A stretch of 62,986 nucleotides of DNA, the filler included, from Reclinomonas americana ATCC 50394 (lineage: Eukaryota), in NCBI GenBank assembly GCA_048213135.1. It is 7 parts of 4 records of this genome, joined end to end, with 100 filler letters (N's around TTAATTAATTAA, not from the genome) between each part and the next. Parts side by side here need not be neighbours in the genome. Positions count along the whole stretch, not along the records: positions 14,364 to 29,754 come from PS015191.1; 6 more parts are not named here. One strand, written 5' to 3'. A program made the position numbers and the translations under genes. The notes beneath the pieces were generated by a model. The model made no database searches. It was not told where the DNA came from and saw only the letters and a list, made by a program, of their open reading frames with translations. This document shows, piece by piece, positions 6,326 to 38,200 of the stretch. Position 1 is the first letter of the stretch, and each line of letters starts with the position of its first letter.

Positions 6326-6375
<50 letters not shown>

Positions 6376-14263: not shown

Positions 14264-14363
14264 NNNNNNNNNNNNNNNNNNNNNNNNNNNNNNNNNNNNN
14301 NNNNNNNTTAATTAATTAANNNNNNNNNNNNNNNNNNNNNNNNNNNNNNNNNNNNNNNNNNNN
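14264..14363. other. Assembly gap with artificial all-frame stop linker (44 N + TTAATTAATTAA + 44 N); same construct at 29755-29854, 38201-38300, 50677-50776, 54304-54403 and 61765-61864
   Basis: Identical 12-mer centred in exactly 100-nt gaps six times. Confidence 0.97.
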
Positions 14364-15267: not shown

Positions 15268-15330
15268 ACGGGGGGCGCGAATAGCGCGTGCGCCACACTA
15301 ATGAGTAAAGAAAACGCCGTTGCGCCGTTG

Positions 15331-16984
15331 CTACACCGCGTCGCTCAGCACCGTGAGCAACTCGTGCAGCACCGACGACACATTGCTGGTCAGCTGCAAT
15401 GACAGGAATGAGAAGGGAGGGGAGGAAAAAGGAAAGGAAGGAGGGAAGGGACGGGCGCACGCAACTCGCAAGCGCCCAGCTGTATGTACCGTGTAGCCCC
15501 CGAGCGACACACTCAGCAGGTGCAGGCCGGTGAGCTCCAAGTTGAAGGTGGAAAACATGAATTGCTCGAGATGCGACACGGCGCTGGTGGCGTCGTGTTG
15601 ACTGCAGCAGCGACGAGGCGCGTGAGCAACATGTGTTTGTGGGTGGGCAGGGATAGTGTCGAGTGTGCCGCACCACAACTGGAGCCACAGATCGGCGGGA
15701 AACTCGGCGGTCATCGTCTGCAGCGCACCGTGCTCCGTCGTGTCTTCGGTACCTACACCGAATACGAACTCGCACTGCTGGCTGCAAGTGTGCATGAGCA
15801 ACAAACAAGGGGAGGAGCGACTGGAAAGTAACCAAACGCAACGACACCATGGCAGCCACGTCACCATCGTCTCCACCTTCCGCTTCGTCGTCGCCACTCC
15901 CACGACCGTCGTCGGTCTCCCGGCGACGCACAACCGTCTTCCGCGCCCTTCCTTTCACCCTGCCTCGTTCTTTCGCCGCCACCGCCTCTCTCCCTCGCAT
16001 GACGGCGGCCACCGACTGACACACGGCCGAGGCCGCCACACGCAACACGTGCGGCGGCAGCAACGCTTCAAAGAACCGACAGTCGAGCAGCGCACACACG
16101 GTGCTCACGTACTTGGCCAGCGCACTGGCTGGCGTGGCACGCAACAGCGCCAGCCGACACAGGTGACGACCATGCGGTGTGGGCGCCGCGCGTCGTCGAC
16201 CTGCATGCCAGGTGAGAAACAACGGGGAGAAAGCGGAAGAAAAAAGCTGCAGTCAGCTGACCTGCCGCGGCCGCTCGCGGCGACATGCTGCTCGCTCGTC
16301 GCAGTGGCGACGGGCCACGCGCCGCCACCTCCACCGACATGGGCGCCGGCGCCTAACTCAAAACCACGTGAGCCAGCAGCAGGAATGCGAAAAAGAACAC
16401 TGCATACACCTCCGCCAGCATCGTCTCCTCCAGCTGCGAACTGGCAAACACCGATCGCGTCGTGAACTCCTGCTCCAGCGCCTCGCGTCCATCTACACTC
16501 CCCCCGATGAGCAACACAGATAAAGAGACAGACTGCACGACAACAAACCATCAAAACGACACCGCAGAAAGCACAGCTCAAACACCACACGCTCCTCTTC
16601 TCCAACACGCATCAGCACCACCTGCTCTGGATCACCACGCTCCTCATTGGCCTCTGCATACGCTCGTGTGAGCACACCAAACAAGCAAATGACCAACCCA
16701 TTGATGATCACGCACCATGCACCACCCATTGCACCGAATGCACCGTGGACCTCTACGCACACATATACACATGATCAGTGTCTCTCCGCCAGCGCACGAA
16801 GTACTGCATGCACCAGCGCAACTGCAGCATCGAGCGCACTCTGCAGCTTCCCGCTCACAGGCGACACATTCAGCACATGCGCCTCCAGTCGGCCCTCACG
16901 ATGCGGCAGTCCGTGTAGAGGCGACACGCGGAACAGGTGCCACTCGCCAGCAGCACCGGAAAGCAGCGCGTGCACATCAGTCAT
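15331..16984 (-). CDS. CENPL: Centromere protein L (CENP-L/Iml3/Fta1)-like
   Basis: N-terminal LL...WHLFRVSPLH; middle LALLR...VCALLDCRF; C-terminal LEQFMFSTFNLELTGLHLLSVSLGGYTVHTAGRLRL, paralleling CENP-L W-x-L-Y-x-x-T-P-L, F-D-C-x-F and F-x-I-x-L-x-x-x-x-L-x-x-V-S...DGKIKI. Recognised by eye. Confidence 0.7.
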
Positions 16985-16993
16985 TGTTTATGT

Positions 16994-17034
16994 AAATCCG
17001 GCGCCAAAATTTGGTGTCGGATTTCGAATTCGAA
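16994..17034. promoter_or_regulatory. Putative cell-cycle element cluster upstream of CENP-L: E2F-like TTTTGGCGCC within an inverted repeat, plus tandem TTCGAA (CHR-like)
   Basis: GGCGCCAAAA at 17000-17009; imperfect inverted repeat 16994-17024; TTCGAA at 17023 and 17029. Confidence 0.4.
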
Positions 17035-17489
17035 CCACTGTCCGATCTTGGTGTGAAGAGAGAGCAGAGTGTGTGCTTGGGACGCCTGTGTGTTCTCTCT
17101 CTGTGTTTGTGTGCGTACTCGTGCAAACGCTCTGGTTATCATCTGTGTGTGAGTGAACGAGTGGAGTGAGTGAGTGAGAGAGCAAGTCGGAAAAGCCGAG
17201 GTGAGTCCGCAGCAACCACCAACGTCCCGTGTGCGAGAGTGAGAGAGAGAGAGGAAGAGAGAGGAAGTGTGTGTTGTGCATGTCGTTCCTTGTGTGTGCG
17301 TGTGTGTGCGTATGTGTGTGACAGAGAGAGCGAGGATGCCGCGCTTTGTTCGTGACGTTGCTCGTTTCGATATCTCGCACACACGCACACACACACCCAC
17401 GCACACCTTGCAAGCAACAGAGAGAGAGAGAGCGAACAACACAGAGAGCACACACGCATGCACACCACTCATCTCTGTCCAAACTGAGC

Positions 17490-20379
17490 ATGGATGCGAT
17501 TCTGATCTCTCTTGTATTTTGTATTGCCAGCTCGGAAAACATGCGGACCTCGGTGTGGTTCATGAACGGCGTTGGCTGGGCTGCCTCCTCGCCTATTGCC
17601 TTTGCAGTGCTCCTGCGATACATTATCCATCTGAGCCCCTTTTGTGCCACCTGCAACACCTATCCGTTCTTCTACGTCGCTGTCGTTGCGTTTTCATCAT
17701 TGTCATCATTGTGCTCTCCCCCCCTCGTCCAACTTGCACTCAAACACATACACAGTACTCTGTGATCATGTTTGTGGCCTCGGTGGTCTATTTCATCGTG
17801 CAAGTGCTGCGGTGAGGGAGTTGTGGAGCGAGTGTGCGTGAGTTGCTCTGGTGACTGACTCTTGGTGTGCGTTGACAGATCGGACCCCGAGAAGCAAGTG
17901 TTTCCGCTCAGCATGTGGCAGTACGGTGTGCTGTCGGTGTTTCATGTGGCGTCGCACTTGTTGAGCATCAAGGCTCTCGAGTCGGCGTACATGACAGTTG
18001 GCCGGTGCGTCTCCTCCCTGTCCATCCGCATCTCTGCTCCTTCTCACCCTCTCGCCGCTTCAGTTTCCTGGTGTTTGAGCTCGTCGACATTGTCATTATG
18101 CTCGTGCTCGGCTCGTGGTTCCTCGGTCGCCGCTGCCACAAGGTGTGGCGTGTGCTGATTGGCAGCATCTTGGCGGTCGGTGGTGTGGCCGTGTTCTGGT
18201 TGACCGTCTGGGATGGTGCGTTTGCGTGTGCGTGCGTGTCTGCACAGACGGTGGATACTCATCGGGAATCGCTCTGTGTGTGCGCAGTGTTCTTCCGCGG
18301 AACTACCGTCCCGTCGGGCAAGTACAACCTGCTTGGCGTGTTGTATGTGTTCCTGGCCCGCATTTGCTGGGTCTCGCGGGGCGTGCTGTCGCGCCGCTTC
18401 CTGGTGCGCGCTGGCGCCAGTGTCAACCCTGAGGCGCTGGTGGATCGTGTGGAGGCCATCAAGGGTGCCGAAGAGTACAGCACGCCGGTTGCGTCTCACC
18501 ATTTTTCTCTGTGTGAAAAAGTCCTCGCGCGTGTTCTCACCCCGGCGGCACAGGAGGGCAAGAAGACGCTCCCCGACGAGTACAAGCGCGGTCACTTGTT
18601 TATCGGCCGCGACGACATGGAGCTCACGCAGCTCGACCAGATCTTCGACAATGCCATGTACGACGCCGAGTATGTGAGGTCAGTCACGATTCTCGCACTG
18701 CCATCGACTGCCCCTCCTCACTCATCGCTCTCCTCCCGCAGCACCACGCGCGATTCGACGTTCCAGTTGCACGCGATTGGCGGTGGAATGGTGCTGGCAC
18801 CGGCTGCCATTTTCGCGTCGGTGATGAATGGCGAGACGCCGGACACATTCAACCAGATCACCGGCGCTCCCATTGTGACCTTGGTGCTGCTTGGCATCAT
18901 GGCGGCGCTCTTCCCCTTCCGCTCGCTCTTCACCAGCAATGTTGCGTCCACTGCGTTTTGCCCCGCGATGTGTGCGGTCTCGGCTAATCCCCCCCACCTT
19001 TGCAGTTTGTGAGTAACTCGTCGTCGGGCACGTTGTTTGGCTGGCGTGTGAGCAAGATCGTGTTGGGCGTGTGCGCCGGCATTGTGCTGTTCGACGATGA
19101 GTTGTCGACGGCCACCCAGATTGCCGGCCTCGCCACGGCCATTGCCGGCCACTTTATCATTCGCCATGCCTACGGCCGCTCGATGGAGAACGACTATGTG
19201 CGATTCCAGATTGCCGCCCTCGACACACACTTTGGCGGCGAGCTGCAAGCCGAGGATGCACGTGCGCTCATCCGCGTGCACCGCCTGCTCGGTTTCGAGA
19301 CCTTCCAGCGCATCATGTTCCAGGCCGCGCTGCACGAGGACACCAAGCAGTGGCGCAACACGGCGCCGCGTTCGCTCGACGTGCGCCGCGTGCTCGACCA
19401 GGACGACGCCCGTCTCCGTGCGTGGTTGGCGCAGGGTGTGCCGGGTGCGCGCGACCCCATGTTCCAGCAGCACGGCACGGTGGCCGACCTTGAGGCCGGC
19501 TACTTCAAGCCAACTCGTTGCGTCTTTATTCTGTTTTTCTGCCCCTTTATCGGATGCGAGTGCTGACGAGGATTGTGTTTTTTTGATTTTTTACAGCTGG
19601 TGGATCGCTGANNNNNNNNNNNNNNNNNNNNNNNNNNNNNNNNNNNNNNNNNNNNNNNNNNNNNNNNNNNNNNNNNNNNNNNNNNNNNNNNNNNNNNNNN
19701 NNNNNNNNNNNNNNNNNNNNNNNNNNNNNNNNNNNNNNNNNNNNNNNNNNNNNNNNNNNNNNNNNNNNNNNNNNNNNNNNNNNNNNNNNNNNNNNNNNNN
19801 NNNNNNNNNNNNNNNNNNNNNNNNNNNNNNNNNNNNNNNNNNNNNNNNNNNNNNNNNNNNNNNNNNNNNNNNNNNNNNNNNNNNNNNNNNNNNNNNNNNN
19901 NNNNNNNNNNNNNNNNNNNNNNNNNNNNNNNNNNNNNNNNNNNNNNNNNNNNNNNNNNNNNNNNNNNNNNNNNNNNNNNNNNNNNNNNNNNNNNNNNNNN
20001 NNNNNNNNNNNNNNNNNNNNNNNNNNNNNNNNNNNNNNNNNNNNNNNNNNNNNNNNNNNNNNNNNNNNNNNNNNNNNNNNNNNNNNNNNNNNNNNNNNNN
20101 NNNNNNNNNNNNNNNNNNNNNNNNNNNNNNNNNNNNNNNNNNNNNNNNNNNNNNNNNNNNNNNNNNNNNNNNNNNNNNNNNNNNNNNNNNNNNNNNNNNN
20201 NNNNNNNNNNNNNNNNNNNNNNNNNNNNNNNNNNNNNNNNNNNNNNNNNNNNNNNNNNNNNNNNNNNNNNNNNNNNNNNNNNNNNNNNNNNNNNNNNNNN
20301 NNNNNNNNNNNNNNNTTTTCCTCTTCCTGTTCTAGAATCGATTCGTGGTGCTCGTCGGCAACGGCACCACACCGTGTAA
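17490..20379 (+). CDS. DMT-superfamily (TPT/nucleotide-sugar transporter-like) multi-pass membrane protein; start uncertain, last exon beyond an N-gap
   Basis: About 10 hydrophobic helices after splicing, with HLLSIKAL, LLGVLYVFLA and SKIVLGVCAGIVLFDDELSTATQIAGLATAIAG, typical of the EamA/TPT C-terminal repeat. Confidence 0.65.
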
Positions 20380-20434
20380 AAGCGAAACGTGTAAGGCTAC
20401 AATGCGTGTGTCGCTCTAGTCTCATTCGTTTGCG

Positions 20435-22198
20435 TCAGAAGCGAGCCAGAGCACCACCGTCACAGCGAATGCCTTCGCCAGTGATAAACGCGGACATAGG
20501 GGAGGCGAGGAACGCCACGACCTTGGCCGTGTCCTCGGGCTCGCCGTGGCGCCCGAGAATGGTGCCCTGTCGACCGGCCTGTGCGAGTAAAAGAAAGTGA
20601 GGAGATGCGTGGAGCGGGCAAAACAAAGATATGCTTTACCTTTTTCACAAACTCGGCAATGCCCTGCGAGCCGGGAGTCAGCGTGATTCCAGTCTTGACG
20701 CAATTGACGCGAATGTTGTGCTTGCCGAGAGCCTGGGCAAATGACTGCAAAACAAAGGGGACCGTGCGATGAGAGAATAAGGGAAGGAGCAAGGGGCGAG
20801 AAGCCACATGGTCACCTCGGTGAGCGACAGCACCGCTGTGCATACTCGATGAGTGAACGGAGAAATGAGGGGGGAAGGGAGTGGAAGACAATGGAAACGC
20901 AACCCGCTTTCGAGGCGCTGTACGCAGTCATGTGGTTGTCTGCATGTTTCACTGAGGTGTGAGCAACCAGCAAGCGATATCAGCAACAGCCATGCGATCG
21001 CAACTGGCGCGCTCCGAGACCACCGACCCAATGTTGATGATGCTGCCGCCTTGGTTCTGGGAGGGACGGAGGGAGGGAGGGAGTGAGCGAATGTATGAGG
21101 AGTGCATTGTGACCTTGGCGTCGCCCTCACCTGCTCGATCATGGCCTCGGCGGCCACCTTGGACCAGTAACTCAGCCCCTTGACATTGACAGCCATCACA
21201 CGATCCCACACGTCGTCGGTGCACTCCAGCGGCTTGTTCAGCGGGTACATGCCGGCGTTGTTGACCAGCACGTCCAGGCGGCCGCAATCGCGCATCACGC
21301 TGCCGATGACGTGGTTGGCCTCGTCGAGGCGGCGTGCGTCGGCCACGTAGAAGCGGTGCTTGCTGGGATGGAGGGGAGGGAGAAGGGGAAGGGTGAGGAG
21401 ACGACGATGAGGGGGAGGGGGAGGGGGAAAGGAGAAGGAGGGGGGAAAGGAGAAGGAGAAGAAGAAGGGATAGAACAAGAACAACAAGGAGAGAGAGGAG
21501 GAGGAGGAGAAGAAGAAGAAGAAGAACAAGAACACGAACAAGGACAAGAAGAATAAAAAGAACGAGAAGGAGAAGGAGAAGAAGAAGAAGAAGAACAAAA
21601 AACAAGAACAAGAAAGAACACGAACAAGAAGAACAAGAAGGAGATGAAGGAGGAGGAGAAGAAGAAGAAGAAGGAGAAGGGAAGAGAGGGAGGAGGAGAA
21701 GGAGGAGGAGGAGGAGGAGGAGGAGGAGAAATAGAAGACAGAAGAAGGGGCAAGAGAGAACACAGTGCAGAAGGAGAAGAAGAAGAAGAAGAAGAAGAGG
21801 TTGGTAGACAAGGAGGGAGGGAGGTCAGTATTCTCCTGCATGCAACTCACCCCTCACTCGGAAGCGAGCGCAATGCATCCGTGCCGCAAGCTTGATTCAT
21901 GTCGACAATGACAACTGTGCAGCCGCATGCAGCCAGCTGCTTGGCACATGCCAGGCCGATGCCTGAGCGACAACATGAGTAAGACAGAACGAGAGTGTGT
22001 GTGTGAGAGAGAGAGAGACCTTGCGCGCCACCAGTGACCACGGCGACCTGTGTGCATGCATGCAGTGTGCATTTTTCCGACAGTGAGAAACGGACTGTGT
22101 TGTGCACTGTGGAGAGACATGCAAGCTACCTTGCCGTGGAGGCCGAGAAGCTCTTCGGGAGAGGGCGTGCTGGGGCTCGCTTTCGCGCTGGCGCTCAT
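20435..22198 (-). CDS. Classical short-chain dehydrogenase/reductase
   Basis: [29 protein letters not shown], catalytic YSASK, NIRVN, FITG...DGG after splicing. Confidence 0.95.
21365..21800. repeat. Purine-rich (GAA/GGA/CAA) low-complexity tract expanding an SDR intron to ~490 nt
   Basis: Directly visible. Confidence 0.9.
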
Positions 22199-22249
22199 GG
22201 AAACAAGGAATTGATGCAGGACAAAACGTGGTGAAGTTGTCTTTGCCTT

Positions 22250-23766
22250 TCACTGCCCCTTCAAAATGCTCTCCAGCCGATCGAGTGCGGCGTCAAACGA
22301 CAGAATGCCCTGATGTGAGGCGCCCTCGAACGCCCACTGCCGGACCGGCTGCGACTGCGCGGTCCACTCGTGCTTGGCGCGGTCCAGACTGCGCCCACCC
22401 ACAGTGCCGTCGCCATCCTCTTCAGTGGCCACCGACACGGGTGGTGCGGGAACTCGGTTGACGGCAAAGTCGGCGGCGTACGTGAACGCCGATTCTGTCT
22501 TCACGCCGGTGCCGCGGAGGACGTTTACGGCCACGTTGGGTGGCTGGAACGGGCCGAGAGTCAGCGAGCGCAGGCCCGCCACGTCGTACATGTCGGCGGC
22601 CTGCTGCAGGCCGAGATCGAGGAAGAGTTGTCGAAAGTCGGCCACCGTGTACGATTTTGTCGGCGTCTTGACCAGCACCTCCGCGGGCGACCACAGCGAG
22701 GCCTGCGGGAAGAGCCACGGACCGCTGGCGCACGTGGACTGAATGGGCCGGAAGAAGTCCTGCAGAGTGTGGCAGTCAGCAACAGGGGACTGAGCAATCG
22801 AGGTGCGGGCGCTGCACAACTGCTGGCAACACCGACACGCCAAAGTTGTCGCCCGAGACCATGGCCTTGACAGTGGACACGGCGCCTCCGAACGGCGGTG
22901 AGATGGCCGTGAACGAGGCAATGTGGGCATCCTTCCACTCCTGCGACTGCTGATGCAAGAAGTGGAGCGCCACCGGTCCGCCCATGGAGTGCGTCACCAA
23001 GTGTGCGCGTCGTCCCCCGTTCCGTGCCACCGTTTGCTCGACGAGCTCACGAAGGGCGCTGTAGTAGGTCGTGCTGCAGAGAGAGAGAGAGAGAGATCGA
23101 TGGTGAGACGCTGCGGTGCAAAGAAGGTCGCGATGAGTAGGCGAACAAACCCAGCAGGTCGGCCCGGCAGCTGCATCCAACTGAGACCGTCGGCCGCCAG
23201 TCGCCAATCGTAGGGGGCTCCGTGCAGGTTGACGCCGATCTGGTAGCCCATGGTGCTCACCAGACGCTTCACCATCGGCTCAAAGTAGGCCGGCGCATGA
23301 ATCGAGGGATCCAAGTAGGCGAGACCGCCGACACCAGTGCCAAAGTCCACCGAGCCGTCAATGTCGACGCCGGGCGTGTTGGAGTAGTGGCGAGTGGTGG
23401 CGTTGTAGTGCAGCTGGACGCGGTGGCGGAAGCAGTCGGGCACCAGTGTGAGCTCCTCCAGACTCAGCCACAGAGTGAACCAGTCGGTGGCGCCACCACG
23501 GCCGTGATGAGTGCTGCGACTGCAGTAAAAGTGTGGCTCCATGGTGTTGTTCAGTCGAGCGTGTAATACGGAGCCACCGAGGCCGTTGATGAGAACCACT
23601 GGCGGGAGTGTGTCGTCACTGGGGACTGCAGGGAGAATGATCATGAGGGTGAATGAAGATCATGGTCAGCAGGGGAGTGTTGTACTGTACCTGCTGCTTG
23701 TGAAGTTGTGATGCAGATGGCGAGGAGGAAGAGAAAGGCGAGGAGAGGGAGTACAGCGCGACTCAT
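22250..23766 (-). CDS. LCAT-family lysosomal phospholipase A2 (group XV-like) with signal peptide
   Basis: MSRAVLPLLAFLFLLAICITTSQA signal; PVVLINGLGGSVL, WFTLWL, GAPYDWR, THSMGG nucleophile elbow, DGDGTV, catalytic His in SHQGIL. Confidence 0.93.
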
Positions 23767-24332
23767 GATGCTGTTGCAGAGCTGCACAGCGTGTGCGCGC
23801 GCGCGAGAAAGCAAACGGAGTTTCAGACAGGTTCTCTTTTGTTGGACGAAGCTCCGGTTTTCGAACGCCGTGGCCACCAAGCCAACAACAACAACCCTGG
23901 CAGGCTGATAGGCGATGAGCGCATCCGAGGTCAGCTTCAGCACTGATCGCACAATGATCGATCCGGCAAGATCGATATATCGCGGTATACGTACACATGT
24001 ACAAAAACTATCGATCGCTGCGCAGTGCATGCAGCGTGCATGTACATGTATCACCATCGGAAGAGGCTGTCGCAGACCACCAGCTGTCACGATTAGTCTG
24101 TCAGCTTCTGCACGCAGCGGCCAGCAGATCGCCATCCTTCGATATTCGATTTCGATATCTCGCGATCGCGATGCCCAGCGAGCGAAAGCGCTGATAGCAC
24201 CTCACGCATCTCGCTACTCCACGTACCTCCTCCAACTGGAGCTCACAAGGTTGATCCCACAGCTGATGACAACTCGTGAACCGCCTCATTTTCTCAAAAT
24301 ACACTTCTTTTCCATCCTCTCCCGCAGCGTCA

Positions 24333-24711
24333 TCAATCTCGGTCAAAACAAGTGACCATCTCCGTGCCCACCTCCACCCCACAGTCCGCACACTCAATGT
24401 GATACATGCCATACATGCCCATGCTCTCCAGTCGCCAATGCTTGTCCACATGCCGACAAGTTCCGTCCGCGTTCTTCTTCATCGGCGGCTCTGCTGGTGC
24501 TGCCGGCACCACTGGCGCTGGTGGTGCAGCGACCTGCCTCACAGGCTTGCCATGCCGCTGCACAAGCGCCTTGCACGCCTTGCACTCGGCGAAATCCAGT
24601 CGCTGCCGCATCATCACCTGCGCGACAACATCAGCATTGACACTCAGCAATACAGCGCACACTGCTACTACTCACAGTCGCATCACACGAGGGGCACTTG
24701 AACTCGTCCAT
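24333..24711 (-). CDS. Small (~105 aa) putative double zinc-ribbon protein
   Basis: MDEFKCPSCDAT|intron GTGAGT..CAG|VMMRQRLDFAECKACK...CRH...CADCG, stop at 24333. Confidence 0.6.
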
Positions 24712-24799
24712 GATTCACTTCTCTCGCACAACAAACGAAAAACAGTTGTTTGTCCCACGCATGGGACTCGCGATCGGATTTCTTGCGCATTTGTCCGAG

Positions 24800-27526
24800 A
24801 TGAGAGAAAGTCGCGTCTTTCGACCTCCTTCTCCTCTCTCTCCTCTCCTCTCTCGGCTCACGCATTCCCTTGCAACACAGGGAGATTACTTGTACCACCA
24901 CTGCTGCTGCTATTGCTGCTGTTGCTGCTGTCAGTGATCAGGTGTGCTGCTTGTCTTGCAAGAATCACATTGTCGTGTTTCTCACTTTCTCCTCACACAC
25001 ACACACAGTCATGCGCAGTCAAGTGACGGTCTGTCTGCCTCACTCACCTTGTGCGTGCAAGCACGTTCTCACTCTTTCCGCAGTCTTGTCTCTGGAGGCC
25101 ACAGACGACGAGCTCTTTGTCGAGGACCTTGTCAAGGACATTGGCGCAGAGGCAACTCTGAGCATGGAGTGGGAGGTGCCGAGTGCAGCACTCTCTCTGT
25201 TGCTGCGGGAACATGGCGGTGATCGATTTACTCTCCGCTGGTCTGCTCTTCTCTCTCTTGCTTTTCCGTCCCGTTGATCGTCGTTTTGGTGAAAGTCTCG
25301 TTGATGCCGCAGGATTGGCTCCGACGATGTGCTGGAGAGCCGTGGACGCGGTGGCGGCGATGCGCCTCTGGTACGAGTCTCTCGCGGCGATTGTCAGTCG
25401 TACAAGGCGGTGAGGAGTCAGGCGGCGCTGACGCAGTGGGCCAATGGCGGGTGCGCGATCCGCTTTCGCACTGGACCGCTGGTCTACAGCGATGCGGCGT
25501 CGTGGAACAAGGTGCGACGGGTGGTGGACTCTGTCTTGTCGGAGAGCGCTCGTGCTGATCGATTGTGACCGCAGGTCAAGGTGTTTATGAGCAACACGGT
25601 GCGGGCTGCCATCAACGGCCTCGTCAGGGACACCAGCAACAGCAAGGTGCACGTGGCACCAGTGAGCGGTTGCGTGCATGGATTGTGTGTTCGTGTTTGT
25701 GTTGCACGGGTGGGCGCCAACGCTGTTGTTTTGTGTGTGCAGCCATGATCCAGCACATGAACGAGTTGCGCATCGGCAGTGCTTCCGATATCTGTGATGC
25801 TTTGGTTGGTTGACTCGTTTTTGGCGAGCGCAGTGCGGCTGGTGGCGATCGCGACTTGCAGGCGCAGCTTACTGGCTCCAAGCCCAATCATCCCGACCAG
25901 CCTCCGGTTTGTGCACTCTTCCTCACATAATATTATATCTCCCTCTCACTCCCTCTCTCGCCAGACTCGGAGACTCAGGAACCGCAAATACGTGCCCGTG
26001 GTCATGCGATTGGCGTCTTCCCTCGGCGCACCGATATCCATCGATTGTCGTCCGCGAGTTGCGTGCTGTCACCCGTGCACCTTCCAGGCGCACTCGTCTC
26101 ACTCTCTGAACTATCGCAGGTCACCTTTGTCGTCCAGCTGCGCAACTTCGTGAGATCCACGTTGCGTCTTTTGACGGCTTGCATCCAGTGATGCGCATTC
26201 TCATCATGTCGCGCGCACAGTAATTTCAGCAACTCGTGGTGGTCCTTTGGTGGCGAAACGACGACGGTGAGGAAGTTGTCTCGACAACACACCTCTGCAG
26301 CTGCTGACTTTGACGTCGATGTGTATGCAGCCGCCGGTCTTCAACGGCAAGCTTGTGCAGACATTCCTCGCTAATGCCGGCACCAGCGCCAGCGACGTGA
26401 CTGCACGCAGCGATGCGCTGGCAGCCCTCCTCACCAGTGTTGGTTTCAGTGCGCCGTTTACCACCGACGAGGTGCGACCGAGGCCGCGTACGAACCTGCA
26501 TGCCTTCTCATCACTGATCTACTCACTGCTGTTGCAGGATTTTCAAGCCACCTGGCTCGTTCTCGGCGCCACTGTCGGACACCTCTGTGCGTCTCTCGTC
26601 ACTGTGATGTTGCTGTATCGAGCTGCGCTCACCTTCGTTGGTGTGTGCACACAGCGTTTGCGGTGTGGGCCACCAAGACAAATGCCAACGAGAACACGGA
26701 CGTACGCTACGACAGGCGCGACTGGATGTCGTCGGCGGTGATGGAGGGAGTTGCGTTGAAGCATGTGTCACTGCTTGAAGCATCGGCTCACGTGCATCAA
26801 CGCAGCCCTACAATCGACCAATGTGGAACTTCTTGCCCAAGGCCCGCCTGCGCGACCTGGTCAAAGCCGTCGCACAGAAATCAACGAGCATGCACAGTTT
26901 GAAGCCGGGTTACACCGGCACGGGCTGGACGACGCTGACCAAGCTCAAGAAGCGTTTCATTTTCGGCCGCAAACGAATGGTCGACGAGGACAAGATCAAA
27001 GCCATTGTCGATGCCTTTTGGGGACCGGCACCCAGTTGCGTCACTCACTTGTTCAGCAACGGGGGGAGCACGACTGAATATATATCGCATTTGCACGACC
27101 AGCGCAAGGCGAGATCGACAGCACCACCGACAAGAATCAGCAGGGAGTTGCGCTTCTCTGCATGCCTTTTCCTCCGCTCATGTGCTGACAACTCTGCTCT
27201 CTTCCTCGCTCGCAGCTGCTGAAGATCCGACGTCGCGTGCGCCCCATTTTCGAACACATGCTCAGCGACGTGTTNNNNNNNNNNNNNNNNNNNNGCAGCA
27301 AGTGTTTGGCCCGATGCGTGCGTCCCCAGCCAGCCTTCCACGAGTGCGCGCGTGTCACACCACTCTCACTCGTCGCACAGGCCACATGCGTGAGCGCAAG
27401 ATGTTTCGCGCGGCACCTCACGCCTCCTCTGTCAGGCGCCTCGCCAATCAGTTGTCGCTGGTGATCGAAAACCGCATGTTGCGTTGGCGTCTACCCAAAG
27501 CGTGCCCTCGACAAGTGATTGACTCT

Positions 27527-27569
<43 letters not shown>

Positions 27570-27707
27570 ATCATCTGCTTTGATTCGCACAGTGGTGACC
27601 GCGATCTGAGCATCCGCATCGCCTCTGAGGGCACTGTCTCCTTTGCAGACGACGCTCTCGCTGAGAAGGCTCGAGTGCGATACGCGGAGACCAATTCAAT
27701 GCAATGA
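24800..27707 (+). CDS. Secreted protein of unknown function, 18 visible introns
   Basis: Splicing gives [35 protein letters not shown] (signal peptide) and a continuous frame to TGA 27707, apart from a small N-gap. No family recognised. Confidence 0.7.
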
Positions 27708-28068
27708 ACCAACCTTGTGCTTCTTCTGTCTCTCATCCACTCATATCGAGTCCATTGTGGCACAACACAGTCTCCCTCTCTCTGTGTGTGTACGAGAGAG
27801 AAGGGGAGAGAGAAAGAGAGAGAGCACACGCGCGACCGTGCGTGCGTCTCCCTCCCTCTCTCTATCTGTCTGTCTCTCTGTGTGTGCGCGAGAGACAGTG
27901 TGTGGAGACGCGCTGGCCACACATTACACACACTCTCTCATTACCAGCGGTCTTCTCACTTGCGCGCACGTGAGGGGTGAGTGTGTGCGCATATAGACAC
28001 CACCATAATGTCGACTAGCCGTTTTCGTCACACATTGACACCCTCGTCTCTCACACACACTCTCACAG

Positions 28069-29754
28069 ATGAGTAACCCATATGAGCTCCTCGTGCGACA
28101 CTTGGCCTCTCAGCCAAGGTTCGTGCACTCACACACTTACTCACCAATCATTTCGCTCGTCCTCAATCAGTCAGCGTGACCACAACAGACACGCTGCGGT
28201 GTTGGCGCACACGTGCAAGCCGAGCGAGTCTGATGGACTTGCCCGCGCACTGCTCTCGTTTGCGTCGCAGTTGACCGGAGCTCCACTTCTGCTTCTGCGG
28301 CATCTGTTGACACAGGAGTTCCGCGCTCACGCCGCCACTGTGCCGCAAAAGATCCTCCGCTCCAACACCATCACCAGCAAGCTGCTGGGCTTGTATGCAC
28401 GCAAGCTGGGCTCGGATTACCTGCGCCTCGTGTTGCGTGGCTTGACCATGGAGCTCATGCAGAAGGAGACGGCGGTGAATCTGGAGTGCGATCCAGAGTT
28501 GCGCGCCGCCACCTCTCCATTTCTCTCTTTCGTGTGTGCACCACCACTTGCCGACGCCTCTTTCTCTCTCTGTGTGTGTATGTGTACGCAGTCGGCTAAA
28601 GGACAGCAAGAAGCCGAAAAAGGCGGCACAGCAGGGTCTCAAGCAGCTGCGCGAGTGGACTGTCAAGTTTCTCGACACGCTGACGGCCTCCGACAATGTG
28701 GATCAGCTGCCACGTGAACTGCGCGCTGTTACGCACTACATTCGCCAGCTGGCGTTGGAGTATGACTTGGATGCGGCGCCAGGGTGCTCAGTCACCGGGT
28801 GTATCGGCGGTTTTTTCATGCTTCGGTGAGTTTTTACTGAGGCGGGAGAAGCGCACAATGTTGGCGCACGGGATATCGCATCATTATCTCGTGCCGCTTC
28901 TTTCTTCGCTTCATACGCGTGCGATCACTGGGCACTGCTTGGCCCCGATGCTTTCTTTCTCCCCATTTCCGTTTCCGTCTCCCCCATTTCTCTTCGCCTT
29001 TTCTTCCCTCTTTCTCACCTCGTTCTTCTCTCACCCCGCAGGTTCATCTGCCCGGCCGTCATGGTGCCCTCGTCTTTCGGCATTCTGCCCAACTCCTTCT
29101 CGCCCTCCGCGCACGTGCAACGTAACCTCACGCTGCTGGCCAAGGTGCTACAAAAGATGGCCAACGACGAGACGTTTGATCAGGAAGGGGAGCCTTATCT
29201 GGCCCCCATCAATGACTTGCTGCTGTCGAAACGCGTGCAACTGAAGCGCTTCCTCTTGCGACTGGCCGATGACCCGTACATTTATCGTTTCGTTAGACTT
29301 CTGCGCCTTGCTGTTGAGCGCCTGGCTGAATGGTCGTCCGTGCAGATGTTCCCGGTCGTGTGGCGTTCGGTGACCTGCGTCTGACATCGGCCCAGATTTC
29401 CAGCAGTCCGGAGGCTGTCATATTATCGCTGATTGACCGAAAGGACTTGCTGCTGCTGCATCGCATGGTCCACCGCAACAGTGACATGCTGATGACCATG
29501 TTGCACGATGAGATTCACGATGGTGCATCCCTCTCTCTATTCCCGTCTCTCTCTCCCTCTCTCGCCGCCGCTCACTCCTGTTTCTTCTTTTTTTTTTGGC
29601 AGCCTCGATCAGCGGCGACGCGCCGGATGTCGACGCCCGCACAGCGGCCGATGCCATTTTCATGGAAATCGTTCACCAGCTCGGTCCACCACCCAAACCC
29701 GGCCACACGCACACAAGATCGGCACCCGGCTTCCAGCTCGACGAGGCCGATTTC
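28069..29754 (+). CDS. Ras GTPase-activating protein (RasGAP domain); frame runs open into the gap
   Basis: ILRSNTITSKLL (arginine finger), GSDYL, LECDP, IGGFFMLRFICPAVMVP signature, RNLTLLAKVLQKMAN, EPYLAPIN. Confidence 0.92.
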
Positions 29755-29854
29755 NNNNNNNNNNNNNNNNNNNNNNNNNNNNNNNNNNNNNNNNNNNNTT
29801 AATTAATTAANNNNNNNNNNNNNNNNNNNNNNNNNNNNNNNNNNNNNNNNNNNN

Positions 29855-30493
29855 ATCACGGCGTTCCCATGCTAACGACGGCCGGTGGCGGTGGTGCTGG
29901 CGTGGTCCCACGCACTCCTTCTGGCGAAATGCGCGCCTCCAACTCGGAGGCCAGCGAACTGGATCCCAGCCACATCAACACATCCTCCTTGTCGCACTCG
30001 CCTCCACCATCTCCGCACCCCAACCGTGGTGGCTCGCCCACTCTCTTGCCGTCGTTGGATGAGGATGCGTCGGAGGCATCGGTGGCCAGCGTGTGGTCCA
30101 GACCACTAGCGGTTGACCGATTGGACTCTCTCATGGAAGTGCCGCCACCCGAGGTCGTGCAGCAGTGGGTGGAGGAGCGGCGCGATGAGCTGCTCGAGCA
30201 GCAAATCATGCAGGAGGACCCCGACCTGGCCTCGGCTCTCGGCGCCGACGACGATCGCGCCGGTAGCTCCACTGATTCAGTCAAACAACAGCACCAGCAC
30301 CAGCATCAGCTGCCGTCGAGCTCCGCCGCACGCACCACAAACACCTCCGAGGACAGTGGCGACTCGTCAAAACTCAGTCGCCGTCGCAAGATTGGCTCCC
30401 GTCGGTTGACCGTCAACACGCACCGTGTGAACGATCCCGGTGCGTGACTGCACTCATTTCTGTCTCTCTCTCTACACACACACACACGCACAC

Positions 30494-30532
<39 letters not shown>

Positions 30533-33500
30533 AATCAAGAACTCACCACGGTATATCGTGCAGGACTGCCAGGAAAGATGGTCGCCGATTCACCAGCCCC
30601 CGACATGCACGTCGATCCGAATCAGATCATTTCACGGACGCGATTTCGACGCTCATCGTTCTTCAAGCTGGCCGACTCACCCGTGGTGGCTGCACGACTG
30701 GCGCGCACGCGTGGCAATGTGCTGCTGGGCATGTCACCGCTGGCGTCACCCACAGGTCGCATCCATTTGCACGTGCCCAAGTCTCGCAGTCGTCGAGCGA
30801 ACAAGGTGAGAGAAAGTAAGAAACGGGTGGGAATAAGAAGAGTACTGACATCTATCTCACCTGGTTTGTGCAGTCGGGAACGGGCAGCGATCGAAGTACC
30901 GCAGCGGAAGGAGGCGAATCGTCTGGTTCGGGGAGTGGTCTGGACACGTCACTGACCATGTCGCCGACGTCGGTGTTGGAGGAGCGGCCCGTCAATGGCG
31001 ACGCCGCCTCGTCTCCATCACCATCTCCTCCGCGACACACGGGTGTGGCGACCGGTCGCCGTGCCACACACGGGCGGTCACATCTGCAGGAGGCGAATGT
31101 GGCGCTCTCCGACATGGGCGACACTGACGACTCGTATCACTCGTCCGAAGCCGAGTTGCCGGCAGCTGTCGCAACTGCGGCCTCGACTCTGCCGACGCAC
31201 GTCTCCAACACTGTGCCGGTGGTGGAGATGGCTGTCGTGGCAGGTGGTGGTGTGGGTGATTCGACACCAAAGTTGGCCGTGTTATCGCCAACCTCGAGCG
31301 AAGGATCACTTGACAGCCCACAGGCCGTAGCGCGTCGCTCTCGGCCTGCGCCGCCAGCCGTCGATCCACCACCACCACGGATACCATTGCTGCCACAACA
31401 ATCGGTGGGTGGTGCATCGTCGTCGTCGTCGTCGACACCAACAGTGCTGCTGCCGCCGGCCTCGCCGCCCGCAATGAGTGCGTCGTCGCCGTCGGATCCC
31501 ACATCGCCGCCAGTCGGTGGAGTCGCGACGCCGAAGCTCTCGCGTGCCAATCAGTTGCATCCCAACAACATTACGGCACCGGAGCTGATGGCGCGCGGTC
31601 GGTCGCTTTCTCCGCCGGGCGGTGAGGCGGCCGACGATCGCGTGACTGTCCAGCCACCGTCCCCGGTGCTTCGTCGGTACGCCAGTGACCTCTCACATGT
31701 TCGCCTCGGGCGACACAGTCCACAACCTACGGCCGCCGCAACCCACGAGCGCATCTCCCACCGCATGCTCATGGATGCGCTGGAGTTTATGCCACCACCA
31801 AGCGAAACGTCGTCGGCTGGTGAGCGAGAAACTGTGACGGAGGGGCTGCTGTCGAGCGCGCGAGCAGGGCGTTCTCGCCGGCGGCGAAAGCCACCACTGA
31901 TGCGTGACGGTGGCTCCGCATCGCAGCAAAACTTGCTGCTACCGCGTGACGCCATGCGCGCTGTGAACTCTGTGGTGCGTTTTTCAACTGTTTTCTTGTG
32001 TTGCATCGCATTGTTTGTGTTGACAACTTGATCAGTCTCCAATTCCTCATCACCACCACCGACGTCGCCGTCGGAGGAGATCGCGATCGCATTCCGCCGC
32101 ATCCACCGCCTCAGATCAATCGCCGCATCGTGATCCACTGCTGCCTCTGTCTGTTTCCCCGTATCGCAACGCCGCCGCTGTGAATGCAGCAACGCCACCC
32201 GCAATTAGTGTCGCTGCTGCTGCTGCAGCCGAGCAGGTACGCTGTGCGCTCATGTCCTCCGATTCGCACATTTTATGTATCGGCAAGGCTGACTGCCGTA
32301 TGAATAGCCACCACTCTCCGCCGACCATCATCGTCATCATACCCACGCCTCCAACTTGAGCATGTCGTCAGTGACTTCACCGCTCCCGCCCGCCAACGAT
32401 GCCTCGTTTGGCGACAGCCTCGTATCGCCTACGGATGCACGAAGTGTCTTGAATGTGTCGGGTTCCGGCAGCGCAACGCGCGCCGGCGATACCTCCTACA
32501 CGCCCACTTCATGCAGCTCAATCGCACCGACACCACCGCCGCCTCCAACAACGCCGCTGCCGCCGACATCACCACCACAACTAATTGAAGGTGGTGAGGC
32601 GGCAGTCAAGTCGCGTTCGCAGCTGTTGTCGTCACCGCCGTCGCTGCCACCACCACCACCACCACCACCACCACCGCCGCCGCCGCCTCCTCCTCTGCTC
32701 GGCACCGCACCGCACTCTCAGCCAACTCAACAACACTCATCGCACCAACCACCACAACAACCGCCACCACCTCCTCGCCCGCCACTGGCGCGTCAGCGTC
32801 AACCGCCCACCACGCCGCCACCGCCGCCACCACCGCCGTCGTCGTCCGCGTCACCTCCGCAACCACAGTCGCCGAGCGCACTGTCGTCATCGCTGTCGAT
32901 GCCGGCTTCGTCGGCTGTGCGAGCTCCATTGGTATTGGACAGTGTCGACGGAGGCGGCGACCAGGACATGGCGAGCAAACGGCATTCGTGGCGCTTTCAC
33001 GACATTCGAGCTGTGTTTGATCACAACACTGTGTCGCCCACGAGTCCGGTGTCGGATCGCAACACCCACTCACCGGTGCTCCAGGAGTTGCGCAATCTCG
33101 GTCTCTCGCCCACATCGTCGTCGACGGTGGCCGAGCGTCTGGCGCGCTTCTCTTCTCCGACGTACGCTCGTGACGCGGAGACGAAGGTGTCGCCGCCAGT
33201 GCAAACTGCTCCATCTCGGGTGGCTGGCGGTCGACGATTGTCAGCGCTCATTCAGGATCGCATTCGTGTGTACCAGACGCCTGTCGGTGAGTAGAGTTAT
33301 TTCCTCCTCCTCTGTCGATTGACAGCAGAGTCTCACACCTTATCGACAGATTCGTTACCAAGCCGCGCCATGTCCACTGCCAGCTCTGGTGACGGGACCT
33401 CCGAGACAGCGTCGCCACCGCCGCCACCTGCACATTCACCGCCATCTCTGCCTCCATCGCCACCCATCCCACCACCACCTCCGCCGTCCGCATCCGTGCC

Positions 33501-35549
33501 GCTGCTGTCGTCGCCCTTTGCGAAACCGGCCGCCAATTCGCTGGCCACACCGGCCAGTGGTCGTTCGTCACTGGCGGTGAACCTGCAGAGGTCACCGGAT
33601 GCCGACGAGTTGCGTTCTGTGCGACAGTGAGTGGCCACAGATGTTATTGGTGTCTGACATTGTTTTCGCCGCCGCCGTGGCACAGTGATGCTGTTTCACA
33701 CGCCACTGCAACACCACACAGCCCCTACGTGGAGGGCGATCGTGCCTCGACACTGGGCGGTTTGTCGATTCGGCGACCCTCGGCAGCCACCATCGCCAGC
33801 TTTGCCAGTCGCGACAGGTGCATCTTTGTTGTCTGGCACCCGCCCCGCCACCCATTCTTCGCCTTGTGCTCACTCTACACATCTGTGCAGTGCACTGTGG
33901 TCTCCCATTGTCGCCGATCTGGCCGCTCTGGATGCACTGAGCACACCGGTGCATGTCGGTGGTGGTGTTGGCGAGCGGCAGCCAACCAAGGGTGCGTGTG
34001 GGTGTGTGTCTTCATTTCGTGATGCATCGGGTCACTGATTGTCTGCTGTGTCAATCGCAGTGCATGCGTCCATGGACCTGCCGCCGCCGCCCCTTTTGCT
34101 CCCCCGGCGTGAGAGATTGCCGCCTGGAATGGCCTCCATGCAGCGATATCGTCGCTCGGGAGACGCCAATGCGGCCTTCCACAACCAGCGGCCGGGTACC
34201 TTTACAGATCGAGTTGATGGAGTCGACGAGCAGGGTGATGGTGGTGATGCGTCGTCCACGGACACATCGGCTGGCACCGACGATGATGGCCGTGATGATG
34301 AGGGAGAGGAAGAGGAAGAGGAAGGGGAGGACGGGGAGGACGGGGAGGAGGAGGAGGAGGAAGAGGAGGAGGACGAGCAACCACCAGAGGAGTTTGACGA
34401 GGAGGGCACGCCGACGGAGACACTGCCGGCGCCAGTGTCGCTCGGGTCGAACATGACGCCGTCGGGCACGCGTGGACGTCCACTGTACATCCACACTAAT
34501 GCTGAGAGTGGTGGCACGCGACGCGGTTCAATCTTTATGGAGGTGCGCAACCCGCTGGGACCCATGTCTCCCAGTTCCGCTGCGCCGCCACCGTCGCTCG
34601 AGGTACGTGTTTTCCTGCTGTTGCTCTGCTTGGATACGGTGATGTCGAGCAACTGACGAGCGAGTTTCTGTCATCGTTTCCGTGCACACAGGCCACGTTT
34701 CCACCCATATCGCAGATGACGACGGTGCACGCAGTGGATATGGACGGCGAGCACGTGACCAACACGCACTGTACGACGACAAGTGTGACGGAGTTGCGAC
34801 GGAGCACGTCGCTGTCGCCAACACGACAGCGTTTTGGTGTGCGACCCACGGCGCTGCACATGGCACTGGACAATGGCGAGACGAATGGCTCGGTGCACGG
34901 CGACGAGACGCAATCACCGCAGAGTTTGATGACGGAGCAGACACCGCCGTGCTCGCCGCTGCTGAGCGCCACGGCGCATCCGAAACCGAGCTCGGTCACA
35001 TCGGTTACTGCCGCAGCGGCGGCCGCTGCTGCTGCCGCGGCTGCCGCCATGGTCAGCGGTGGACCTGTGGTGACGCCGACACAACTCGGTAACAGGCGAG
35101 CGCGATTCCACGTGCGTCGTCGGTCGTCGCGGACGGAGAGTATGGTGAGTTCCGAGGGCCGTCACTCCGTGGATCAGGAACACGAGCGGACCTTCGAGGT
35201 TGGCTCTGCAGCCGCAGCCGCGGCCACTCTTGCCGCCGAAACAGTGCGGCCGCGCTCCTCGTCTGTCCGCTCCATTGACGGCGCGGACGGCACCGCGGAG
35301 CCGGTCTGTGCACCCATTCAGGCCGCACCACCATTCCCCTTTGTCCGCACCGGTAGTGTGCCGTCTACTCTCGACGTTGCGTACGGTCGCCGTCGTGCAG
35401 TGTCTGCCGGCGATGATGTGACCGGCACTGTTCCTCGGCCTGCGGCCGAGTCGGGCCCCCTTCGTGCCGAGTGGGAGCGAGAGCAGCAGCGAAGACGAGG
35501 AGATTCTTTCGAGGTCTCAGCGGCGACAACAGCTGGTCCCTCCCGCTAA
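29855..35549 (+). CDS. Long Ser/Pro-rich disordered coding region, probably the C-terminal continuation of the RasGAP gene
   Basis: Large + strand exons (29855-30439, 30874-31975, ~32356-33287, 34061-34602, 34716-35549) joined by GT-AG introns, with poly-Pro and poly-Glu tracts; same strand as the open-ended RasGAP. Confidence 0.6.
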
Positions 35550-35680
35550 CCTTACATGTTTTAATATTATTAACTCGCACGCCCGCGCCCTGGGCTTGCT
35601 GTGTACTTTTTCTAAACCACCCCCCAACCAAGCATTAAATGATATCGTTTGCTGTTATTGATGATTGATTGTGGGCAAAA

Positions 35681-38200
35681 TTAGATTGCGAAATGCCGCG
35701 CTGCTGTGCTTCCGCCAAACGACGATCGGCTGCGCAATCTTTGCAGCACGGGTGCAGAGCCAGCGATTGCTGTTGCTGCTGGCGCTGGTGCCGGCTTCAA
35801 ACCGGGTGAGCCCATCGAACCGCGCGACGAACTCGAGCCGGTGCGCATGAGAACACTGGCGACGGTTCCGGATCGCTTCACCAACTCTGGTCGAGTCAGT
35901 GAGGAGGCGCGCCGAGCCATCAGCAAATTGCTGTTGCTGCGAGTCTTAGCCAGGGACTCGGCCAATCGGAAGACATCATCGGCCGCCGGGTCGCTTGTCG
36001 GATCCTTTTGCCCGGTGGCCACCGAGCTCCGGGAGCGCTGGCGCTGCAGCCGACCGGCCTCGATGCGATGCCGATCGTCGATGCACCGCTGTCGCAACAA
36101 TTCACGCTCCACCGGCCCGAGGCCCGAGGCGCCGTCGTACTGTGCGCCCGACAATTCCAGTCGATACCCCTCGGTGCTCCACAGCAAGCGCGCGTGCGGG
36201 ATAAAGAGGCTTGGCAGCGATCGATCAGCTGGTGTGGTATTCGCCGCGTGCGCCGCCACTCGCAACGCCGCGCTAATGTCCCAGCAGCGCACGGTGCAGT
36301 CCTCACCGCCCGTGTACAGCATGCTGTCGTTGTCGAGTGCCAGAGCCATGGTGTTGATCTCCTGCGGCGTCACGAGCAGAGTGCCGCATGAGCGGCACTG
36401 CGAGCCAGTCGAGAGGTCGAATAGTCGCACAGTGCGATCCGCACTGTACACACGAGTGTGAGTGCGCATCTGAGGCACGGGAGAATGCAGGTAGGGAGGG
36501 CGCGCACCTGCCGGTGAGGAGCCATCGACCGCATCGTGAGTACACCACCGCTCGAACTTCGTCGGTATGCGCTCTCTTGGCTCGGAACAGAGCATCGCCA
36601 GTGGCCGCCGACCAGAAGCGGATACTCTTGTCCCAGCTGCCGGCGGCAACCAGTGCGACTGAATCGGGAGAGAAGGCAATCGCCAGCGCCTGGCGAGTGT
36701 CGGCACGCAGCGCTTGTCGGCACGAGTACGTCTCCGTGTCCCTGTGTATCAGAAAGTGTGCGGATCAGTGCACACCGACAATAAAAAATATATATACATG
36801 CAATGAGTGTGCACATGAGAGCGGCGAACCAGATGCGAACAGTGGCGTCCTTGCTGGCCGACGCTATCCATTGACCGTTCGGCGAGTACGCCACATCCAT
36901 CACCCAGTCCGAGTGACCGCCACTCATCGCATCCATGACGGCAACTTCCTCGTGTCGCGCCACCGACCACACACGCACGGCACCGTCCGAGCCGCCAGAC
37001 AGCACAAACTGGCCGTCGGGTGCAAATCGCACGCTGCGCACGTGAAGCAGCAACCGGTCAGACTACAACTATTCAACTGCAGAGTGAAACTCACGACTCG
37101 CACCAGTACACACGGCCTGCGTGCCCGCGAAGTGACCAGATGGCCTGCCCATTCAGCACGTTCCACAGACGCACCATGCCGTCGTCGTACCCGGCCACTG
37201 CTGTGAGTTGATTTGGTGCGCACTCGATGGCATTGACGCGACCGCCATGGCTCTGTTCCCGGATGACGCGAACCAATGCGCCAGTGGCTGTCTTCCACAC
37301 TCGAATCGAGCCGTCCCAGCTGCACGACACCGCCAGACGTCGATCACACGTCAACGACACGGCACGCACGGGGCCCGTGTGTCCCTCTCCTCGCGTCACA
37401 GTTTCTCCACCAAACAAATCATGCAGCCGCACAGTCTTGTCCTCGGAGCCCGACACCAGAATGCTGCCATCGTGCGAAAAGGTGACACTGGTACGTGCAG
37501 ACAATATGTCAGACAATACAAACATACATGCAGTCTATCAGACGGGGCCTTGCGTACCAGTTGACAGTGTCGGTGTGCGTCTCGATGGTGGTGATCAGAC
37601 GACCGGTACCAGTGGACCACAGTCGAATGGTGCGATCGCTGGCTGCCGTGCCCACAAATCCATCGACCGCAAACTGAATGTCGTGCACCGCACCCGTGTG
37701 TCCCTCCAATCGCGTGCGCACAGTGGCCACTGTGCCGACGGTGCCCGAATGCTGCAATTCCACACTCGTATCCCACAGCATTACCAAGCTGCGGTATGTG
37801 CNNNNNNNNNNNNNNNNNNNNNNNNNNNNNNNATGAATGAAGTGAGCACAGAAAAGCACATTCTGCGCGCGCGTGCGTGCACACGTACCCATCTTCCGAG
37901 CCGGTTGCCATGGTGCGCCCGTCGGCAGCAAACGCAATGGACATGAGCGGGAGGCTGTGGGCAGTCACCGCCGCCGATGTCTCCACTCCAGTTTTCGGAT
38001 CGATGATGCGGAGCGAGCCGTCTTCGCAGCCGAGAGCCAGCGAGGCTCCGTCGGGAGTGAATCGCATGCAGCGCACGGGGGGCAAGCTAATTTCGGGGGT
38101 GGCCCACACGGCAAGGCACTCGCCACTGTCGACCATCCACAGTCGAATCGTCTCGTCGTCGCTGGCGGACGCCAATGCCGCGCCGTCGGTCGAGAACGAC
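35681..38200 (-). CDS. Multi-WD40-repeat protein, 5' partial
   Basis: More than 10 repeats such as ASASDDETIRLW, LEGHTGAVHDIQF, SGSEDKTVRL, SCSWDGSIRVW, GHSDWVMDVAYSPNGQWIASASKDATVRIW, TGGEDCTVRCWD. Confidence 0.92.

Follow-up and report, generated by a model that had tools for sequence, protein, structure and literature searches.

A frequent class of GTTGCG-type donor sites in Reclinomonas americana that U1 may read one base downstream of the ordinary register

By analyzing 62,986 nt of the Reclinomonas americana ATCC 50394 genome (assembly GCA_048213135.1, seven parts joined end to end; hereafter the window), we found that about one in five predicted introns begin with GTT-N-H-G, mostly GTTGCG, and that the exon side of these sites is displaced by one base relative to ordinary donors with the cut kept at GT. 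On balance, we lean towards regarding them as introns of the major spliceosome in which U1, probably a changed one, initially reads the 5′ splice site one base downstream, the cut still falling at GT. What the analysis of these 62,986 nt adds is a graded exon-side compensation, in which the need for T at intron position +7 relaxes with the last exon bases. Throughout, a slash marks the cut, GTT-N-H-G donors are called shifted and donors with G at +5 ordinary; statements about published systems refer to the sections of each source covered here.

Results

A GTT-N-H-G donor class among the predicted introns

The window is GC-rich, intron-dense eukaryotic DNA. Introns were predicted by a purpose-written gene finder, whose donor score was taken from intron positions +3 to +9 alone and never from exon bases, and by a donor-blind variant that required GT and nothing further at the donor; the exon-end bases were therefore unselected. 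After two introns of the DBP9 helicase gene had been swapped for one on homology, the working set comprised 183 predicted introns: 39 with GTT-N-H-G (33 of them GTTGCG), five others with G+6, 125 with G+5 and 14 of other kinds, so that the GTT-N-H-G share is estimated at about 21%. This set retains errors, such as a missed DBP9 intron at 42846, and a better-supported subset was defined by model support >3 nats (34 shifted and 87 ordinary donors). GTTGCGT was the top donor 7-mer even in the donor-blind model (15/165), and GTTGCG was found at 3 of 922 GT dinucleotides within intron bodies versus the start of 33 of 183 introns. The shifted motif varies much less than the ordinary one does, with C+5 in 37/39 sites, G+4 in 35/39 and essentially always T at +3; 35 of the 39 sites have neither G−1 nor G+5. 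Among the five G+6 sites with another base at +3, four are ordinary AG/ donors. The sole GTTGAG-type donor, at 40784 in DBP9, opens an intron of 188 nt (median 68 nt) that the gene model missed, so A+5 variants may be undercounted.

The closest of 120 DBP9 homologues fetched is a protein of the jakobid Seculamonas (551 bits versus 486 for the next), which was also sister in a 27-row tree, a narrow sample with two long branches and a mis-joined C-terminal half; these matches make a jakobid affinity plausible, if weakly so. Elsewhere in the window, inspection by eye showed a degenerate tandem repeat at 600-1500, in a pyrimidine-rich stretch, the repeated unit measuring about 110-190 bases, and the minus-strand gene at 7812-8889, with two predicted ordinary introns, is presumably an RsmH-type rRNA methyltransferase, judging by its motifs. 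Pfam hints below the cut-off were obtained on the minus strand for CENP-L (15331-16984, E 0.034) and for a SHIPPO sperm-tail repeat (43587-47391, E 0.011), the latter of which suggests a flagellated cell. The parts are joined by 100-base N fillers with a central 12-base all-frame stop spacer (14264-14363, 29755-29854, 38201-38300, 50677-50776, 54304-54403 and 61765-61864), across some of which genes seem to run on.

The share of shifted donors is highest in the gene at 24800-27707 (7 of the 16 donors modelled upstream of a sequence gap), the product of which has a signal-peptide-like N-terminus. Its family was not recognised, with no Pfam match in five exons tested and only three repeat-like phmmer matches for one exon. 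Donors 24810, 27478, 24942 and 25023/25029 of this gene are weakly fixed, and the intron at 27478 is lengthened by a GT repeat. The donors are listed below, with gene-model support in nats.

24800..27707, plus strand: intron-rich gene of about 18 introns, 9 shifted and 9 ordinary donors (gene models); 20-N gap at 27275-27294
24808..24816 (+1 = 24810), plus strand: G+6 donor, A/GTC variant outside the GTT class; support 2.0, weakly fixed
25667..25675 (+1 = 25669), plus strand: shifted donor, G−1; support 8.5 (3.1 donor-blind)
25763..25771 (+1 = 25765), plus strand: shifted donor, GA/ with C+7; support 12.1 (8.2 donor-blind)
26056..26064 (+1 = 26058), plus strand: shifted donor, GA/; support 1.7, cut not separated from alternatives
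26159..26167 (+1 = 26161), plus strand: shifted donor, AC/; support 4.2, cut not separated from alternatives
26748..26756 (+1 = 26750), plus strand: shifted donor, GA/; support 7.4, cuts at +1, +2 and +5 worse by 17-20 nats
27033..27041 (+1 = 27035), plus strand: shifted donor, CA/; support 16.7 (10.7 donor-blind)
27145..27153 (+1 = 27147), plus strand: shifted donor, GA/ with C+7; support 17.6 (15.2 donor-blind)
27476..27484 (+1 = 27478), plus strand: probable shifted donor, AT/; in one gene model only and outside the 39
40782..40790 (+1 = 40784; intron to 40971), plus strand: shifted donor CA/GTTGAG in the DBP9/DDX56 helicase gene; homology
20998..21006 (+1 = 21004), minus strand: shifted donor of a short-chain dehydrogenase gene, CA/ and A+7; homology
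20897..20905 (+1 = 20903), minus strand: shifted donor of that dehydrogenase gene, GG/; homology
+1 at 1773, 1919, 11306, 11704, 17685, 18488, 18941, 19517, 28498, 29287, 33609, 38852, 39697, 39920, 47493, 48188 and 52178, plus strand: other predicted shifted donors; gene models
+1 at 3819, 3457, 13178, 16822, 15842, 15465, 22820, 45747, 45297, 49890, 61034 and 60340, minus strand: other predicted shifted donors; gene models

The predicted donors in the last two lines span 1771..61036, and support is below 3 nats for 16822, 22820, 28498 and 33609.

The cut stays at GT in introns of the major type

An initial annotation of this DNA had held that cleavage stays at GT, and this appears to hold for three sites by homology and for most others by reading frame. 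Against a DBP9 profile that drew on at most 70 of the 120 homologues, GT at 40784 was the best of 25 cuts (379.4 bits), with 374.0 bits for the +3 cut and at most 12 for out-of-frame cuts. Against a profile of five plasmid dehydrogenases, one of them truncated, GT was the best of 15 cuts (109.1 bits) both at 21004 (+3, 105.4; +1, 95.0) and at 20903 (+3, 104.9; +1, 96.7). The +3 cut thus loses at all three sites. In the gene-model frame test of 39 GTT-class donors, a set containing 40915 (later dropped) and not 40784, GT beat the +1, +2, +5 and −1 cuts in 38, 37, 37 and 37 cases, respectively; it was preferred to the in-frame +3 cut in 33/39, with a median margin of 1.3 nats. At 26058 and 26161 the test does not separate GT from alternative cuts. 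A Pfam RasGAP match spans donor 28498 on both sides, its exact cut base not being fixed by the match; homologue searches for two further genes found none, and PDB searches with three exons gave nothing useful.

These results bear on whether the class is an artefact, in which the intron would really be cut at TT, at GC or at some GT further on, base-calling errors would have altered AG/GTGCGT, or exonic GAG-TTG-CGN codons would inflate A at −1. Although the introns are gene-model predictions only and the model hardly tells the frame-preserving +3 cut from GT, GT is best by homology at three sites and over the other cuts by frame, GC is absent from +3 in the GTTTCG and GTTGAG variants, and A precedes 6 of 22 non-donor GTTGCG occurrences in genes. 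Cuts at TT, TG, GC or a GT further on were rejected, as were base-calling error and codon inflation. An artefact is, in our judgement, the least credible of the explanations weighed here.

Shifted introns carry U2-type features, namely a CAG or TAG 3′ end in 34/34 and a CTVAY-like branch motif in 28/34. Minor (U12-type) introns have a distinct strong branch site, an RTATCCTT-like donor and a phase-0 deficit. The near-identical first seven bases and the dispensable G−1, as in minor introns, might suggest a recently gained, introner-like family or a transformed minor-spliceosome class, with A−1 reflecting an insertion-site preference. The intron bodies, however, are unrelated (median pair scores 13 versus 12, the top pairs being simple repeats), and junction redundancy is 0 in 23/34, with no target-site repeats; for want of a common body sequence and of target-site duplication, an introner origin was rejected. 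Branch distance (17.5 versus 18), length (68 versus 67) and phases (p=0.83) likewise equal those of ordinary introns, as do the branch motif and the 3′ end, and the minor class was rejected on branch motif, distance and phases. We regard either origin as very improbable.

The exon-end preference is displaced by one position

The initial annotation had counted 18 A, 10 C, 6 G and 5 T at −1 of 39 shifted donors; the re-derived models gave 19 A, 11 C, 4 G and 5 T, with codon-phase-matched expectations of 6.7, 12.1, 13.4 and 6.8, so that A was in excess (p=4e-6) and G depleted (p=5e-4). The excess of A was also found among non-G exon ends (19/35 versus 8.9 expected, p=2e-4) and in the 34 better-supported sites (14 versus 5.9 expected, p=7e-4), and A was present in 14 of 32 shifted donors outside the 24800-27707 gene. 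Addition of the five other G+6 sites gave 20 A, 11 C, 8 G and 5 T (n=44). With A at fewer than half of the shifted sites, the "consensus" of the initial annotation would better be termed a preference. Ordinary donors have G−1 in 97/125 and A−1 in 6/125, and the two classes are near-exclusive by last exon base, shifted donors following 4 of 115 G-ending and 19 of 26 A-ending exons. Among non-G ends, A was more frequent in shifted than in ordinary donors when all sites were compared (19/35 versus 6/28, p=0.01) and not distinguishably so in the better-supported subset (14/30 versus 4/13, p=0.5). The contrast reported earlier within the 24800-27707 gene was reproduced, four of its donors being weakly fixed: A precedes 6/9 shifted donors (24810, 25765, 26058, 26750, 27035 and 27147; the others have G at 25669, C at 26161 and T at 27478), and G precedes 7/9 ordinary donors, provided that the third is 25029 and not 25023.

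At −1, the base frequencies in shifted donors were A.40, C.32, G.12 and T.15, in agreement with those at −2 in ordinary donors (A.40, C.29, G.16, T.15), and the exon-only log-likelihood of the shifted −1 bases was −62.5 under the ordinary −2 profile versus −131.5 under the ordinary −1 profile; the proposed one-base displacement of the consensus thus stands. C−2 showed no overall enrichment (11 versus 12.1 expected) and was found in 8/19 sites with A−1 versus 3/20 others, and A−2 in only 1/19 sites with A−1. C−3 was enriched (19/39 versus 11.7 expected, p=0.011, uncorrected), which is not a prediction of a shifted register. In addition, the four GTTTCG(T) donors (11306, 29287 and 39920 on the plus strand, 61034 on the minus strand) all follow a C-ending exon (4 of 11 C-ending shifted sites versus 0/28 others, p=0.004), three of them reading AC/GTTTCGT, a short palindrome around TTT.

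The same counts bear on a U1 duplex that keeps the usual frame while a single base, +2 or +3, bulges out (bulge-1), a register proven in humans, with 54 and 36 curated cases among 201,541 sites (PMC4856993). With G at U1 position 5, it is the best register for the four G−1 sites and may serve these. It requires G−1, however, which is depleted here (4 versus 13.4); a +3 bulge would free position +3, but the non-T G+6 sites are mostly ordinary AG/ donors (4/5), and a link between A−1 and T+7 is not predicted. A U1 bulge is therefore disfavoured as a general rule, and we hold it to be highly unlikely.

T+7 compensates for the exon end in a graded manner

T+7 was found in 20/20 shifted sites when the exon ended in a base other than A and in 10/19 after A (p=4e-4), with 8/14 after A versus 20/20 in the better-supported subset, and 4/9 versus 12/12 in the 21 sites that the donor-blind model fixes (p=0.006). 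The dependence is graded, from 20/20 after non-A through 8/11 after GA or AA to 2/8 after CA (trend p=3e-5; p=5e-4 in the 34-site subset); the contrast between CA and other A ends, a post hoc split of small numbers, had p=0.02 (0.10 in the subset). A parallel series was observed for T+6 in ordinary donors: 2/9 after CAG, 11/20 after DAG and 27/45 after other G ends. CA/G of a shifted site thus seems to behave as CAG/ of an ordinary donor, which is what pairing of −2, −1 and +1 to U1 G11, U10 and C9, respectively, would predict, and the graded compensation would be the signature expected from U1 pairing one base downstream.

The A−1/T+7 link could also come from compensation between U5 and U6. 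The pattern might be set at a later step by loop 1 of U5 together with the ACAGA box of U6, or by their proteins: A−1 would pair to a U in that loop, U6 would take G+6 and T+7 in a +1 register, and a standard U1 would bind loosely or elsewhere. In animals and plants, anti-correlated U5 and U6 pairing separates donors into two classes (PMC11732430), cryo-EM models put −1 opposite U5 U40 (PMC8283771), a non-canonical (−1) U6 register is on record (PMC11162779), and shifted sites bind a standard U1 poorly. The extra relaxation after CA, and not after AA or GA, nevertheless fits U1 G11 rather than a U-rich loop (A−2 in 1/19), ordinary non-G donors show no clear preference for A (6/28), and the invariant T+3 and C+5 are left unaccounted for, all of which makes this explanation quite unlikely to us.

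A dedicated second U1, for instance one with A at position 8 and so no mismatch at T+2, might instead read the shifted class alone as a separate donor code in the major spliceosome. The rigidity of the shifted motif (C+5 in 37/39, G+4 in 35/39) and the near-exclusive classes by last exon base (4/115 and 19/26) would suit such a U1, which would also give an identical-looking exon-side compensation. Rigidity is predicted by mismatch compensation too, however, and the GCG core is also favoured in the 28 ordinary donors lacking G−1 (G+3 in 25/28, C+4 in 16/28), so one U1 could serve both classes; we consider a second U1 unlikely.

U1 register and duplex energies

Duplex energies were calculated for the standard U1 5′ end (PMC4856993) and for hypothetical altered ends, pseudouridine and protein terms being excluded. 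With the standard end, shifted sites had mean energies of −0.4 kcal/mol in the usual, −0.8 in the shifted and −0.8 in the bulged register, compared with −6.3 kcal/mol for ordinary sites, and the shift beat the bulge in 9/34 sites and lost in 4. The three-register comparison proposed in the initial annotation thus gave no clear gain for the shift with the standard end. The shifted duplex would be almost unbound, so that a changed U1 or another factor would be needed. With a hypothetical G5 U1, the shifted register reached −5.1 kcal/mol (−6.8 with G5 and C6) and was better than the canonical register in 34/34 sites, beating the bulge in only 14/34; a clear energy gain was obtained with this end only. 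Under the ordinary donor matrix, shifted sites scored 10.2 bits when slid (with +2 set to G, the mismatch being ignored), 6.7 bits when bulged and −8.8 bits unshifted.

The earlier proposal that the whole U1 duplex slides without a bulge therefore stands in part. For the U1 step it is in keeping with the depleted G−1, the near-invariant T+3 and the relaxation of T+7 after A and CA; against it, a standard U1 gives the slide no better mean energy than the bulge, and C−2 is not enriched. It can apply to U1 only, as the U6 step would need a looped-out base if G+6 pairs.

C+5 in 37/39 shifted donors and C as the most frequent base at +4 of ordinary donors point to a U1 with G5, although C-rich donors alone would not prove a changed U1, as the cases of Thecamonas and Micromonas illustrate. 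An Rfam scan of the 62,986-nt window matched no RNA, snRNAs included. A metagenome scan for a G5 U1 gave six loci, none at the Rfam U1 threshold; these are chance matches, the best U1-like one having 13.6 bits (E 6) in three of the six rescanned.

Discussion

From the exon-side displacement and the graded compensation, we infer the following course of recognition by U1. Intron G+1 would replace exon G−1 opposite U1 C9, A−1 and C−2 would pair with U1 U10 and G11, T+2 would stay unpaired facing U1 C8, and T+3, G+4, C+5, G+6 and T+7 would pair with U1 positions 7 to 3, so that exons without a terminal G might become spliceable through the shifted register. The U1 5′ end is probably changed to G at position 5 and perhaps C at 6, with which the GCG core would give a G:C-rich helix strong enough in both registers; the shifted class would be common here because of this change. 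After departure of U1, the cut would remain at GT. U6 normally pairs with G+5, fixing the cut five bases upstream (PMC11162779). With the cut kept at GT in shifted introns, we infer that U6 would either forgo its usual pairing with G+5 or engage the site in a +1 register, one base being looped out.

Sites with U1 pairing shifted by +1 are known in humans (Roca and Krainer 2009, as described in PMC4856993 and PMC11162779), and the human non-canonical registers together make up 1.5-2% of 201,541 sites (PMC4856993). Like those human sites, the class described here has its consensus one base downstream, a GU-N-purine core that follows CA at some sites, and the cut kept at GU. Whereas the human sites are rare, are read by a standard U1 and have an A-rich core, it accounts for about 21% of predicted introns and has a GCG core hardly bound by the standard U1, with which the energy gain of the human shifted register was not found. 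By these predictions it is at least ten times as common as all human non-canonical registers combined, and reading in a shifted register, exceptional in humans, seems to be routine in this DNA. In the bulge-1 +2/+3 register (Roca 2012; Tan 2016, PMC4856993), G+6 replaces G+5 as it does here, but exon G−1 pairing is kept, whereas here G−1 is depleted and A−1 favoured.

Co-evolution of U1 ends with donors has been described in Entamoeba and Mastigamoeba, and in the latter +4 C of the donor is matched by G in U1, a G5 U1 (bioRxiv 10.1101/2022.06.08.495308); this is the very change predicted for U1 here. Both have a single donor class in the usual register, with no shifted second class in the sections of that preprint covered, and Thecamonas and Micromonas prefer +4C with an unchanged U1 (same source). 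The two major donor classes AG/GU and /GURAG (Parker, Fica, Simpson 2025, PMC11732430) resemble the present ones in being split genome-wide by exon-end G and in showing exon/intron compensation; they remain in the usual register and keep G−1 or G+5, whereas 35 of the 39 shifted sites have neither.

No description of a GTTGCG donor class was found in the literature searched, which covered titles and the starts of abstracts. More tentatively than the U1 reading itself, and with less than even confidence, we raise the possibility of a second donor code in the major spliceosome. A retuned or duplicated U1 would read about one fifth of introns displaced by one base, and sites lacking both G−1 and G+5 would routinely be accepted by the catalytic spliceosome, with U6 working in a +1 register or with a changed ACAGA-box or Prp8 pocket, of which that literature gave no description.

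How U1 recognition is handed over to U5 and U6 so that the cut hits the right G is a long-standing question, and human shifted sites are too scarce for statistics. If the reading is true, a genome with thousands of shifted sites would provide a natural data set in which U1, U5 and U6 could be separated by covariation, and would test U6 function in a +1 register. Annotation of this lineage is affected as well, since standard donor models penalise shifted sites. The class would also be, if true, a clear case of co-evolution between an snRNA and its splice sites that frees exon ends from the G−1 constraint.
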